Shown piece by piece: positions 6,043 to 16,342 of a stretch of DNA of 64,000 nt; position 1 is the first letter of the stretch; each line of letters opens with the position of its first letter. The stretch comes from Dehalococcoidia bacterium (GTDB lineage: Bacteria > Chloroflexota > Dehalococcoidia > Lucifugimonadales > UBA3495), in contig DAOUIF010000084.1 in assembly GCA_034423575.1 (NCBI GenBank), forward strand, positions 2,040-66,039. Direction: 5' to 3'. Under the pieces are notes generated by a model. That model did no database searches, was not told where the DNA came from, and was given only the letters and a program-made list of their open reading frames with translations. A program made the position numbers and the translations under genes.

Positions 6043-6232
6043 CTTGCCATCGGCACGGCGCGGGTGGATAATGTGAGCACGAATTTCCGGTGACAGTGGT
6101 ACGTCAAGGGGGGGCCTCTACGCCCCGGACGAGCCAAGAGGTTCGATAAAGCCTTCCGCTCAGTTGCCTCGTTATTTTGGCAGGGAAACCTCCCACCGGA
6201 AAGTTCGCATCACGGTACTCTTAGGGGTACCA
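6043..6232 (+). repeat. Non-coding direct repeat, copy A (putative att/arm-site region with sigma70 promoter)
   Basis: Aligns with 16149-16342; 6182-6232 is identical to 16292-16342 over 51 bp. Contains TTGCCA-N17-GATAAT. Confidence 0.9.
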
Positions 6233-6320
6233 GAACAGTTGTTGTATCACCGGATTGCTCATCAATAGAGCATCCTTAAGATCCAGCGGTCACGAGACGC
6301 TAGGCCACCACAGAAAGTGA

Positions 6321-6345
6321 GAAGGAGTCGGCTAGCGACTCCTTC
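6321..6345. terminator. Perfect 10-bp hairpin, possible terminator
   Basis: gaaggagtcg-gctag-cgactccttc, between repeat A and the end of the receiver gene. No clear U-tract. Confidence 0.4.
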
Positions 6346-6600
6346 CCCTACCGCTCGTATTTGCGGTAATTTTTCGTTTCAGGCTCCCGCTGTCGTACCG
6401 TCCCCTCGATGCCGACATCTTTCGTTGCACTTCTTGTAGGTCAAGACAAGCGCGGTTACCGGGGTAGGTGCAAACTCGCTTTGCGTATATTGCCGTTTCG
6501 ACAGGTCTTTCTTCTGCGAGCAGATACACAGCGGCGACCTTTGATTCCCTGAAAGGCTGCTACTCAGCACTGCAGGCTAAACAAGGACGGTCGCCTGTAT

Positions 6601-7812
6601 TCAAGACAAACTCTGACTACCGAATTGCTGGTTCAATCTGAACATCACGGAATCCACATCCAGGTCCGGTGTTCCCAACCTACCGAAATACCGGGCGAAG
6701 CGTGCCAGGAATGCTTCGGCGAAGGGACTATCGAGGGACGCTCTCCGCTCCAGACCGCTCGCTTTACCACGTGGCAGGGTTGCCAACTGCTGGAAATCCG
6801 CCACCAAATCGGGCAGGGTGAGAGCTCCTGGGAGGAAGTAAAACCTCTCAGCTTGGCCGTCCTGTCGGTTGTTTCCCAGCAGGGACTCAAGCCTCCGCTT
6901 CACATTGTTGGATGGCTCCGGGAGCGTTTCCTTCCAGCCCGTAAATTCCGGTTGCTCCGTAAGATTAAGGCAGCGAGCGAAGAGCATGAAGTCCGCCTTC
7001 TCTCTACCAGAGACCATATCACATGACGGGGTAATCAGAATCCAATATCCGGCCTCTCCGTCGATGGAGCCGTGATACAGGTCGCCCGCAAGGGGTGTTG
7101 GCTCCACCGGTGGCAGCAGGTAGTACAGCATCGGATGAACCCTTTCATCCGATGTGAATGCAACCGTGGTATCACCCATGTCCTGCACCAACTGTTGAAT
7201 GCCCGGCCCGGATAATGAGATTGCCAAACGCTTCGCCAACAGGTAGGCCAATTCCCTGCGGTCTGCGCCCCCGGCAAAACTGTTCCAATTCTCCGCAACG
7301 AAGCCCCACATATAATCACGTTGCACCGCTTCCAAATGATGGACCAATGCACGATTGGTCTGTGGCAACGCGGTATCGAAGATTTCCCTGATGGTTAGCA
7401 GCAGTTTCGGCAGACCTTCCGTCTTTTCCACTATCCGCACTACCGGCGATTCCATTGCTCGAACCTTGTAATCAAGGCCCGTATAGAACACCACGGGCAC
7501 GAATCGCCTCGCACGAACGGCAGCTATAATTCTGATACCCTCTTCTTCCACCAGGCTCTCTGCGTCTTCTGTGTTCCCGTCATCCGGGTGTCCTTGGTCG
7601 TGGGAACCCTTCCTGACGTCCAGTATCAGAAGGTCTATGCGTCGGGTTTCCAGTTCACTCAGGGCGCTGTTGAAATCGCTGATGGCCTGCACCCGGAGGA
7701 CATGATCCGAACCGCCGACAAGTTCCCCGTCAAGATATTCCTCGACCTGACGGCACAGGTCGGGGTCATCATCAACGAACAACGCCTGCCACTCAGTTCC
7801 CGCCATAATCAC
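6601..7812 (-). CDS. Response-regulator receiver domain fused to an uncharacterised C-terminal domain
   Basis: LFVDDDP, DLLILDVR (phospho-acceptor Asp), VFYTG and VEK receiver motifs. C-terminal part has ILITPSCD and ARYFGRLGTPD. GTGA overlap with the kinase gene. Confidence 0.8.
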   Translation of the reverse strand: MIMAGTEWQALFVDDDPDLCRQVEEYLDGELVGGSDHVLRVQAISDFNSALSELETRRIDLLILDVRKGSHDQGHPDDGNTEDAESLVEEEGIRIIAAVRARRFVPVVFYTGLDYKVRAMESPVVRIVEKTEGLPKLLLTIREIFDTALPQTNRALVHHLEAVQRDYMWGFVAENWNSFAGGADRRELAYLLAKRLAISLSGPGIQQLVQDMGDTTVAFTSDERVHPMLYYLLPPVEPTPLAGDLYHGSIDGEAGYWILITPSCDMVSGREKADFMLFARCLNLTEQPEFTGWKETLPEPSNNVKRRLESLLGNNRQDGQAERFYFLPGALTLPDLVADFQQLATLPRGKASGLERRASLDSPFAEAFLARFARYFGRLGTPDLDVDSVMFRLNQQFGSQSLS

Positions 7813-15586: not shown

Positions 15587-15620
15587 CTCCCACCGGAAAG
15601 TTCGCAAACGGTACACTTAG
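15587..15620 (+). repeat. Non-coding repeat, partial copy C
   Basis: ctcccaccggaaagttcgca is 20 bp identical to copies A and B, followed by aacggtacacttag versus tcacggtactcttag. Confidence 0.85.
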
Positions 15621-15716
15621 TCCCGCTTCGCAAGAGTAGGGTCTGCTGGTTTATAGGATGTTGTTCCACCTACGAGGCTATCGCAGGCCGGGAACCCAAT
15701 ACCCTTGGGGCTTCCT

Positions 15717-15890
15717 TCATTTGAACTTTTTCCATATCCACAGGGCAAGACCAACGATCAAGATTATGACAGCGATAACGAACAGGACTATAAACCACCA
15801 CTGTTGGAACAGCCATTGAATTCCGACAAAAATCATGGCCAAGACGATAACGGCGAGAACAAAAGGGTAGTAATTCTTGTCCGCCTTCAT
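15717..15890 (-). CDS. Small two-helix membrane protein (57 aa)
   Basis: MKADKNYYPFVLAVIVLAMIFVGIQWLFQQWWFIVLFVIAVIILIVGLALWIWKKFK. Perfect extended -10 TGGTATAAT on the minus strand at 15944-15952. Confidence 0.6.
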   Translation of the reverse strand: MKADKNYYPFVLAVIVLAMIFVGIQWLFQQWWFIVLFVIAVIILIVGLALWIWKKFK

Positions 15891-16148
15891 GGTGTTCTGC
15901 TCCGCCTTCGCCACGCAACCAAATGGCATTGATTTCGGTTGGGATTATACCACTCGCATCCGGCGGAATCCGACTACCGGCTAATCCGGTCGGCGAAGCT
16001 GACCTTTGCCCTCATAGATAAGGGCTTTCGTTCGGATAGCAGGGGTCTCCCAGATAGTCGTACTTTCCCTTGCTATAGAACGGGATGGCGGGTCATCGTT
16101 GCTCAGGGACTTGTACCTCAGCACGAAATCGTCTCACCCGGTGCTGGG

Positions 16149-16342
16149 CTTGCCATCAGCGCGACGCGGGTGGATAATGTGAGCACGAATTACCGGTGAC
16201 GGCGGTACGACAGAGGGCGTTTCCTCTACGCCCCGGACCCGCTGACTGCCTCGGCGTAGTCTTATGGCTTGACTTCCCTCGCTACTTTGTTAGGGAAACC
16301 TCCCACCGGAAAGTTCGCATCACGGTACTCTTAGGGGTACCA
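16149..16342 (+). repeat. Non-coding direct repeat, copy B, at the probable right end of the accessory island
   Basis: Homologous to 6043-6232, with the same TTGCCA-N17-GATAAT and an identical terminal 51 bp. Housekeeping-like catabolic genes follow. Confidence 0.9.

Follow-up and report, generated by a model that had tools for sequence, protein, structure and literature searches.

Direct repeats of a Dehalococcoidia island as probable half-sites of a CcrB-like large serine recombinase family

Closest described systems

The nearest counterparts of the repeats analyzed here are found in the ssrA islands of Dehalococcoides mccartyi. Their integrase DsiB is a CcrB-like serine recombinase of ~540 aa that is encoded on the reverse strand and adjoins the left junction (McMurdie et al. 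2011, PMC3146451). The islands target one gene, at the tmRNA T-loop; a 20-bp stretch of that gene is repeated, with all repeats lying within 100 kb of ssrA (PMC3146451). They are arranged in tandem with direct repeats between them, and many are devoid of the integration module (PMC3146451). Our system shares with these islands the bacterial class, a CcrB-like serine recombinase, the 3' end of an RNA gene as the target and the tandem arrangement with direct repeats. The window (the whole analyzed stretch of 64,000 nt), with its three direct copies of a repeat and no large serine recombinase (LSR), also resembles both ssrA islands and SCC-type arrays, where tandem islands are set apart by direct repeats and some have no recombinase. 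However, at least five tRNA species are used here, at the acceptor/CCA end, in addition to core sites. Moreover, the repeat, 57 nt in length, encodes the C-terminus of the recombinase itself, and its copies occur genome-wide, some with a promoter.

Several other systems show partial likeness. In the case of the staphylococcal SCCmec elements (CcrAB/CcrC), CcrB is the best curated match of our LSR, and composite arrays likewise have direct repeats at their ends. SCC pseudo-elements lacking a recombinase are presumed to be mobilized in trans. In contrast to our system, SCC integrates at a single protein gene (rlmH), and its ccr genes reside inside the element instead of spanning the attachment site. 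Large serine integrases of phages (phiC31, Bxb1, A118, SPbeta) have the same domain set, a simple site of ~50 bp and longer attP half-sites, and the imperfect dyad symmetry of their sites may have a counterpart here, but phage targets are single protein genes. We know of no phage large serine integrase gene that runs across attP. In cluster G/N mycobacteriophages, as reportedly described by Broussard et al. in 2013, the attachment site is located in a gene 3' end and integration swaps the protein C-terminus; the split gene is said to encode the repressor and the integrase to be a tyrosine enzyme. Here, the split gene is that of the serine recombinase itself, and a function of the tail swap is putative. 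Finally, small cassettes that are devoid of a promoter, have a recombination site at their end and are stacked in one orientation are reminiscent of integron cassettes with their attC sites (examples are locus L085 and the 344-aa cassette of the window). Unlike attC, the site is conserved in sequence and partly coding. The R''/R' GTTRRRY motifs are absent from the core consensus, and IntI was not found in the loci examined.

Repeat copies in the window and the long form

Two long copies of the repeat, A and B, and a third, short one were identified in the window (Table 1). They had been described in the earlier note, made from the sequence of the window, as direct repeats identical in their last 51 nt accompanied by a partial 20-bp copy at 15587, and we found all of them at those places. 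Copies A and B are ~80% identical over 198 nt. The identity reaches 86% in the 5' 73 nt and 93% in the 3' 69 nt, with the last 51 nt identical (100%), while the middle part is diverged. The similarity has an abrupt 3' limit at GGGGTACCA. The third copy contains the exact 20-mer CTCCCACCGGAAAGTTCGCA (15587-15606), but its tail frame is broken by a 1-nt deletion and the CCACCA end is gone. With up to three mismatches allowed, the 20-mer occurs three times in the window compared to 0.01 occurrences expected, and none out of 100 shuffles reached three. GGTAC is present twice at 12-nt spacing, as noted earlier (6214 and 6226 in copy A). Since GGTACC is palindromic, the GGTAC pair is also an inverted repeat. 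The sequence immediately to the right of copy A is possibly a decayed recombinase-side arm.

Table 1. Features of the window related to the repeat copies
Feature	Position	Strand	Remarks
Long-form module, copy A (promoter, ~150-nt region, attachment core)	6039..6232	+	Direct repeat with copy B; homologous to 11 more long forms in other MAGs
Putative sigma-70-like promoter TTGCCA-17-GATAAT, towards junction	6044..6072	+	10/12 consensus positions
Putative recombinase-tail frame GTPKSTVMRTFRWEVSLPK + stop, inside the ~57-nt core; candidate attP-type half-site	6172..6231	-	In related loci, LSR genes have their C-terminus in this frame
Inverted repeat GGTAC-N8-GTACC, adjoining crossover	6214..6231	+	Same in copy B at 16324-16341; T-run follows in L039 and L060
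Sequence right of copy A, ACCAGAACAG...CACCGG	6232..6256		Starts with ACCAGA like the LSR arm ACCAGACTTGACGG; weak resemblance
A-to-B segment: receiver-like and HATPase genes, C5 methyltransferase, pentapeptide protein, 344-aa cassette, 82-aa ORF	6233..16144		
344-aa gene, cassette partner of the short core	14497..15531	+	91% / 85% nucleotide identity to L085 / L059
Short-form core, decayed	15573..15626	+	Profile match, nhmmer 44 bits; 3' of the 344-aa gene, as in L085 and L059
Long-form module, copy B; right edge of low-GC island	16145..16342	+	Direct repeat with copy A
Putative sigma-70-like promoter TTGCCA-17-GATAAT, facing L-PSP and FAD/BBE genes	16150..16178	+	Same motif as in copy A
Putative recombinase-tail frame GTPKSTVMRTFRWEVSLTK + stop, copy B	16282..16341	-	Reading frame compared with copy A

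The GC content is 0.53-0.58 up to position 17000 and 0.59-0.67 (mostly at least 0.61) beyond it, in agreement with the previously suggested switch at copy B. Homology to relatives begins only at ~17075-17115, ~750 nt to the right of copy B, and no conservation in relatives could be detected for 16343-17100. When an empty site at the FAD/BBE locus was sought in relatives, only FAD/BBE-PrpD turned out to be conserved. One related locus (L056) matches window positions 6158-12837 at 95.8% identity within different flanks, and in L085 the 344-aa gene is the single gene between two cores. No recombinase is encoded in the window, as the earlier note had stated, nor is there any LSR in the 1.8 kb to the left of it.

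The long form (~195 nt, 13 instances including copies A and B) combines the core with a conserved outward-facing sigma-70-like promoter, which, judging by its sequence, is probably active and would transcribe across the junction. In another reading, the long form would be a resident gene for a small RNA (~150 nt, with a promoter and a terminator hairpin) and would serve as a chromosomal attB, as ssrA does in Dehalococcoides; the copies would be this gene and its duplicates rather than element ends. Every one of the 13 long forms has the conserved promoter, with CTTG and GATAAT unchanged throughout, a T-run comes after the 3' hairpin in L039 and L060, copy A has a fold z-score of -2.8, and in four genomes long forms are positioned 18-39 nt upstream of tRNA-Trp or tRNA-Pro. 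Furthermore, L075 and L093 have in common the long form and everything to its right, with nothing in common on the left. All these observations would fit a resident gene. On the other hand, genomes contain several diverged copies (SB0662_bin_29 at least three, the window and OZ242258.1 two each), and long forms that occupy corresponding chromosomal places are not orthologs (the L039 long form is 68% identical to copy B, the flank 85%). Islands are located 5' of the long form and not 3' of it, and the tail reading frame is intact. RNAalifold revealed no compensatory pairs among the 13 long forms (covariation term +1.35), although the invariant 3' arm makes for low power. In Rfam 15, there was no gathering-score match for the whole window, and both copies gave only chance-level matches at E up to 10. 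We consider a resident small-RNA gene unlikely.

Further identities were considered for the copies and rejected. ARAGORN detected no tRNA or tmRNA in the window, and by inspection the 3' end could not be folded as a T-arm with an acceptor stem. Upstream hairpins, such as GAGCCTCC...GGAGGCTC, brought up a TnpB/IscB guide RNA, an IS110 bridge RNA or a group II intron end; these were discarded because the upstream ORFs are unrelated cargo genes rather than transposases. A minus-strand Shine-Dalgarno leader was dismissed, as in most copies a start codon at the right distance is absent.

The 3' junction and the linked recombinase family

The core 20-mer is present in at least 118 loci of Dehalococcoidia/Chloroflexota genomes, often several per genome; all of the comparison genomes are MAGs. 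Sequences upstream of the core are unrelated, while its 3' end is abrupt, at GGCCCACCA. In the common short form, GGTAC...GGCCCACC takes the place of the GGTAC pair. The boundary is illustrated by three loci (L205, L207 and L269): from exactly ...GTAC|TTTT rightwards, they have over 11 kb in common, but their left arms and left flanks are different. The pair L075 and L093, which agree in the long form and to the right of it but not to the left, illustrates it as well. At this junction, L207 and L269 have a different 57-nt left arm, which may represent either an unoccupied arm or another module. In 11 of the 14 loci with multiple cores, every copy is in direct orientation, and the island content 5' of the copies varies between relatives. 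Thus, att-like junctions with serial accretion, as proposed in the earlier note, are supported: the 3' boundary coincides with a site-specific recombination junction found across many relatives, copies that occur in clusters almost always have the same orientation, and the 5' content is variable, which fits the serial addition of modules at one kind of site. The same note had taken genome-wide scatter without relation to island edges as evidence against its reading. The core is indeed scattered, but as what are probably the ends of mobile modules. Viral contigs yielded a single match, so this is not mainly a phage system.

The minus strand of the core reads GGP..T.LRTFRWEV..*, and this is how LSR genes end in four loci (L035, L049, L052 and L121). 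Homologs of this LSR (more than 5300) have the domains Resolvase, Recombinase and Zn_ribbon_recom. Among the best 120 of them, a common body extends up to ...STVKSGG and is followed by separate tail classes. The family is very abundant, with more than 570 gene copies among species representatives. Its best NCBIfam matches are CcrB (E = 1.5e-39, well short of the cut-off), XisF and CcrC, all below the equivalog cut-offs; we therefore regard the LSR as a relative rather than a member. By sequence, its closest counterparts of known structure include SPbeta YokA and the TP901-1 integrase. A 4.4-kb module composed of the LSR and a Replic_Relax-like gene was found in 74 of 81 loci, in L121 adjoining T4SS genes. 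The close relative SB0662_bin_29 carries such LSRs as well (L172 and L201).

The conserved LSR body extends as far as the codons TGGTGG, which are complementary to CCACCA. We classified 82 LSR gene ends, and all of them have (C/T)CCACC-A at the junction. In 23 cases, the end overlaps an intact tRNA gene, encoded by the other strand, at its 3' end (Ala 6, Val 5, Met 4, Ile 4 and Lys 4). Another 13 ends adjoin a core, 31 face a convergent second LSR and 15 are of other kinds. The codons of the 13 LSR-adjacent cores vary as CTG/TTG, CGG/CGC/AGG and TTT/TTC, and TAG, TGA and TAA all occur at one codon position. Synonymous variants together with all three stops at one codon show that the tail is translated and selected. 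Differences between copies A and B follow the same pattern: CTG/CTA and AAA/AAG are synonymous, TAA/TAG changes stop to stop, and there is one replacement. The conserved core is the minus-strand coding tail of the recombinase gene, and the element, regarded as non-coding in the earlier note, is not strictly so.

GTTC is located 20 nt from the junction in every one of the 23 tRNA arms, compared to 26 nt in all 31 convergent-LSR arms and in the core. When the nearest GTTC was scanned for, eight of the 13 LSR-adjacent cores gave 26 nt; the remaining five have a second GTTC nearer to the junction, and the 26-nt GTTC is visible in their sequences. The 6 bp by which core and LSR arms exceed tRNA arms correspond to the attP/attB length difference expected for LSR sites. 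Rutherford et al. are said to have reported in 2013 that attP half-sites are ~5 bp longer than those of attB. Together, the core and the LSR end may form an imperfect palindrome of ~50 bp, with 10.8 of 24 positions complementary compared to ~6 expected (7 of 500 shuffles reached this value). For the LSR-B arm, the value is 13.7 of 24. Judged by the symmetry axis, which lies within CC|CACC, the crossover dinucleotide would be CC; judged by the breakpoints, it would be AC.

These data also bear on two other explanations. The core might be a different kind of dispersed repeat (REP/MITE-like or a 3'-UTR/terminator module) spread by transposition or gene conversion, with the adjacency to LSR genes being incidental. 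Its scattered distribution, mostly one copy per 8-kb block and 3' of many unrelated genes, is what such a repeat would produce. However, the core lacks terminal inverted repeats and is not accompanied by a transposase, its 3' boundary is the very stretch where LSR genes meet tRNA genes, the coding signature is in the LSR frame, and the half-site spacing matches that of LSR-derived arms; we find this explanation quite improbable. As for the tyrosine-integrase att sites with paired GGTAC arm-type sites envisaged in the earlier note, direct repeats do bound island segments and GGTAC does occur twice, 12 nt apart, but no tyrosine integrase adjoins any copy in ~280 related loci, the adjoining enzymes are LSRs by their Resolvase, Recombinase and Zn_ribbon_recom domains, and the GGTAC pair is a palindromic hairpin beside the crossover that the short form replaces, which leaves this idea hardly tenable. 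The sites of serine recombinases are simple, ~50 bp long and free of arm sites.

Proposed origin of the window and its meaning

With a probability of about 0.68, we interpret the repeats as the recombinase-distal, P'-type half of the attachment site of a CcrB-like LSR family that serves mobile elements of Dehalococcoidia. The three copies in the window therefore most likely mark the ends of serially inserted segments that have lost their recombinase genes.

In the proposed scheme, the LSRs are borne by integrative mobilizable or conjugative elements, and the recombinase gene contains the attachment site in its 3' end. The conserved body stops at ...VLSTVKSGG (DNA TCTGGTGG), and the last ~16-19 codons with the stop lie beyond the crossover, in the ~57-nt core. 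Upon integration at a tRNA CCA end, the recombinase body would stay beside the tRNA, and the island would have the core, together with the cargo upstream of it, as its far end. Tandem modules, each terminated by a core in the same orientation, would arise when more elements, or cassettes devoid of a recombinase, inserted at such ends. The window would accordingly contain at least three right-hand ends (long A, the decayed short core and long B), the recombinase genes having been deleted. That cores are element-borne far ends and that accretion produced the order seen in the window is what we infer. The promoter of the long form might drive downstream genes in the integrated state or, at an intact site, transcribe the recombinase tail in the antisense direction. 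The A-to-B segment could leave as a circle, as also suggested in the earlier note, only with a recombinase supplied in trans.

Some observations are not accommodated as readily. The simple model does not account for the 31 convergent LSR pairs. A search for an LSR with the long-form tail GTPKSTVM found none, and all 13 long forms are orphans with no LSR adjoining. Four long forms end in GGTAC|TT and not in GGTAC|CA. Similarly, no complete element (an LSR with a core at the far end) was detected within the 10-kb flanks of LSR loci, and none of these loci has another core in the 10 kb that precede the LSR gene. The elements exceed 11 kb, compared to 4.4 kb for the conserved module.

A bolder, tentative version of this scheme, to which we give perhaps one chance in a few, is that the splitting of the recombinase gene by the attachment site within it is deliberate. 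In that case, the tail would act as a switch of activity or directionality, and orphan cores would make up a cassette system served in trans. Integration would swap the RTFRWEV tail for target-derived tails, and excision, or insertion beside an orphan core, would restore it. Orphan cores, some with a promoter, would then be the serine-recombinase counterpart of integron cassettes in sponge-associated Dehalococcoidia.

From a practical viewpoint, the module is an edge marker for mobile and defence islands in SAR202 and sponge-associated Dehalococcoidia, which are uncultured and of ecological importance. The LSR family itself is unusual in using the CCA ends of several tRNA genes and in having a gene that spans its own attachment site; therefore, the C-terminus of the recombinase changes with each recombination. 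If this tail swap affects activity, it would represent a new control over the reaction direction of serine integrases, relevant to genome engineering.

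Repeats, gene content and breakpoints in the window

The direct repeats described in the earlier note were confirmed by both coordinates and identity. Copies A and B are 86% identical over the 5' 73 nt and 93% identical over the 3' 69 nt; the middle part is diverged, the final 51 nt are identical, and beyond ...GGGGTACCA the similarity is lost at once. In addition there is a shorter, third copy, and the 20-mer CTCCCACCGGAAAGTTCGCA occurs three times in the window (0.01 occurrences expected). We refer to the ~195-nt repeats as the long form and to their ~57-nt 3' part as the core, which on its own constitutes the short form.

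Positions of repeats and selected gene groups in the window
Feature	Position	Strand	Description
Copy A	6039-6232	+	direct repeat with copy B
Copy B	16145-16342	+	direct repeat with copy A
Shorter third copy	15573-15626		core-type match
Ubiquitin-like cluster	792-5208	+	794-aa E2-E1(ThiF)-JAB fusion, then metallo-beta-lactamase-fold protein (PADLOC PDC-M48B), then patatin phospholipase
Restriction-like group	6601-12835		732-aa protein (N-terminus restriction-like HATPase_c_3, BbrUII/HgiDII family; C-terminus histidine-kinase-type); its partner, a 403-aa receiver-like protein; adjoining C5 cytosine methyltransferase with C-terminal endonuclease III Fe-S motif
Tandem units, high-GC part	26959-28697		~1053-nt unit in two copies, 71-80% identical

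The proposed switch in gene character at copy B is supported as well. The GC content is 0.53-0.58 up to 17000 and 0.59-0.67 (mostly >=0.61) beyond, and defence-looking genes lie left of copy B (E2-E1-JAB fusion, metallo-beta-lactamase-fold protein, patatin, methyl-directed restriction-like protein, HATPase/receiver pair and C5 methyltransferase). The genes at the left end of the window together are a ubiquitin-like, defence-type cluster; the equivalent place in L039 (L-numbers denote related loci in other genomes, mostly MAGs) holds DUF6527 plus DUF6791/ThiF. The tandem units of the high-GC part are probably paralogous genes. As stated previously for the recombinase, the search of the 64-kb window revealed none, nor any tRNA or Rfam family; a recombinase is also absent from the 1.8 kb to the left of the window.

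Comparison of relatives, which the earlier note had called for, revealed presence/absence breakpoints at the copies. The JGI contig L202 matches window positions 1-15973 without a difference. L056, a locus of a sponge MAG, shows 95.8% identity to window 6158-12837, with another long-form subtype on the left side and other genes after the methyltransferase. L039/L205 has a different ubiquitin-like defence cluster left of a long form and the orthologous FAD/BBE-PrpD pair on the right. L205, L207 and L269 are colinear for >11 kb starting exactly between ...GTAC and TTTT; to the left of this point L205 has a long form, and L207 (9792-9848) and L269 (9789-9849) have an unrelated 57-nt arm, likewise GTAC-ended. 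This arm also yields a short minus-strand frame, GTPGGHAFIVSGGVY followed by a stop; left of the arm, a segment of ~5 kb runs in opposite orientations in L207 and L269. L075 and L093 have in common the long form and all rightward sequence, and nothing leftward. The window's own flank to the right of copy B, 16343-17100, has no counterpart in the relatives compared.

The core and the recombinase tail

A search of species-representative genomes for the 20-mer returned at least 118 matching stretches; the element is not private to the island. Among the matches listed, nearly all come from Dehalococcoidia, Chloroflexota or SAR202 MAGs, many are sponge-derived and several per genome are often found. 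The only match outside Chloroflexota among those listed (L103, Catellatospora tritici) is probably due to chance, because it lacks the remainder of the core. The alignment anchored on the 20-mer defines a conserved stretch of only ~57 nt, ccCTAtAgcg.gACCTCCCACCGGAAAGTTCGCAaTACgGTACaCTt.GGCCCACCA, with a sharp 3' end and unrelated upstream sequences. In L016, L085 (4079-4125) and L100 a variant 3' end, GTTCGCAAT(T/G)GAGCCTGTCCCAGAA, is present instead of the usual ...ACGGTACACTTAGGCCCACCA. The long form is rarer than the core, and 11 further full copies were found.

Read from its minus strand, the core encodes ...GGP(K/E)CTVLRTFRWEV.., and the distance to the stop is constant. The same tail forms the C-terminus of a CcrB-like large serine recombinase (LSR) in L035, L049, L052 and L121. 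This LSR has >5,300 homologues, in which Resolvase, Recombinase and Zn_ribbon_recom domains are present, and its top curated-family matches are CcrB, XisF and CcrC. The best 120 of the >5,300 homologues share 80-91% identity as far as ...PVLSTVK(S/F)GG, after which they split into discrete tail classes. For codon comparison we used 13 LSR-adjacent cores chosen independently of the 20-mer. They contain the variants CTG/TTG (Leu), CGG/CGC/AGG (Arg), TTT/TTC (Phe) and CCT/CCA/CCG (Pro), and all three stop codons (TAG, TGA and TAA) at one codon position. On these sequence grounds, the tail is coding and under selection. Copies A and B retain the frame intact (GTPKSTVMRTFRWEVSL(P/T)K and stop); of the differences between them in this frame, two are synonymous, one exchanges a stop codon for another and one is a replacement. 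The short copy is decayed, as it has a 1-nt deletion and its CCACCA end is gone.

Junctions and a proposed insertion model

The LSR scan returned >570 gene copies; 80 loci were kept and 82 gene ends classified. For 23 of them the partner is an intact tRNA gene of the other strand (Ala 6, Val 5, Met 4, Ile 4, Lys 4), whose 3' end shares ~6 nt with the LSR gene end; 31 lead into a convergent second LSR gene (56% identical), 13 lead into a core and 15 are other. The recombinase-side arm of all classes, A(A/G/T)ACTTGACGGTAGACAG(A/T)ACCG, is joined to its partner at (C/T)CCACC. Because every class meets there, we consider the CCACCA end of the core (GGTACCA in the window) to be the family's DNA joining place. 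The distance between a GTTC motif and the junction is 20 nt in 23/23 tRNA arms and 26 nt in 31/31 arms made by a convergent LSR gene end. A nearest-GTTC scan of the LSR-adjacent cores gives 26 nt in 8/13; the remaining five have a second, closer GTTC, and the 26-nt one is visible in their sequences. In the model attributed to Rutherford et al. 2013, the attP half-site of serine integrases is reportedly 5-6 bp longer than that of attB, which sets the two apart; by its spacing the core is of the attP type. Joined to the LSR end, the core makes up an imperfect palindrome of ~50 bp, the axis of which falls within CC|CACC (mean 10.8/24 positions complementary, reached by 7/500 column shuffles).

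The convergent pairs (L122, L126, L128, L158, L201 and 26 more loci, near locus position 11584) overlap by ~24 nt at their 3' ends, and the partner's antisense is read as a ~100-aa tail, resulting in 643-aa forms. These pairs (31/82) fall outside a simple integration model.

We propose that the recombinase gene would contain the attachment site within its 3' end. As long as this attP-like arrangement is intact, the gene would read body and then core. Integration at a tRNA CCA end would leave the body beside the tRNA with a makeshift tail, and the core with the cargo upstream of it would become the island's other end. More elements or cassettes inserting at such ends would produce arrays of modules, each core-terminated and in the same orientation. 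The model is supported by several observations: all copies are direct in 11 of 14 multi-core loci; the L085 homologue of the 344-aa gene in the window is a single-gene cassette flanked by two cores; behind many orphan cores there are just the final 16-40 codons of an LSR, in other words the other arm by itself; and locus families have everything left of GGCCCAC in common and nothing right of it.

A 4.4-kb module (LSR and a Replic_Relax-like gene) is present in 74/81 loci, and the cargo outside it varies; in L121 the LSR adjoins T4SS genes. L139 and L147 have >11 kb in common, yet the former is located at tRNA-Met and the latter at tRNA-Val. None of the LSR loci yielded an element complete at both ends. 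In L128-L151 (locus ~7160-7210) the left edge of the module is sharp and lies at TACCACAAAACC...; after it, immediately upstream of the Replic_Relax-like gene, there is a near-palindrome, GGCTTGCAAGGCC, which may be a transfer origin.

The long form and known systems

All 13 long forms start with TTGCCA-17-GATAAT, matching 10 of 12 consensus promoter positions, and CTTG and GATAAT are invariant among them. The putative promoter points towards the junction and is followed, after ~150 nt, by the hairpin GGTAC-N8-GTACC, with a T-run behind it in L039 and L060. Four long forms precede a tRNA-Trp or tRNA-Pro gene by 18-39 nt and share its orientation, and copy B is directed at L-PSP and FAD/BBE genes. 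No LSR adjoining any long form was found in the related loci searched. Judging by sequence, we take the long form to be a core module to which a putative promoter, facing outwards, is added. The main rival reading is a free-standing small-RNA gene serving as a target. Against this, the copies within a genome are multiple and diverged, those occupying one chromosomal place in different genomes are not orthologues, and the islands lie 5' of the long form. RNAalifold found no compensatory pairs in the 13 long forms, a result of little power given the invariant 3' arm.

Among described systems, the Dehalococcoides ssrA islands come nearest; there the CcrB-like DsiB is encoded on the reverse strand beside attL, the tmRNA 3' end is repeated as 20-bp units, islands occur in tandem and some are without the integration module (PMC3146451). 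SCCmec is a better-known analogue. Unlike in the known systems, here there are several tRNA targets, at the CCA end, and one repeat variant has a putative promoter; moreover, the site splits the gene of its own recombinase, and the repeat therefore encodes the enzyme's tail. Mobility of the segment between copies A and B would require an LSR in trans; LSR genes are present in the close relative SB0662_bin_29 (L172, L201).
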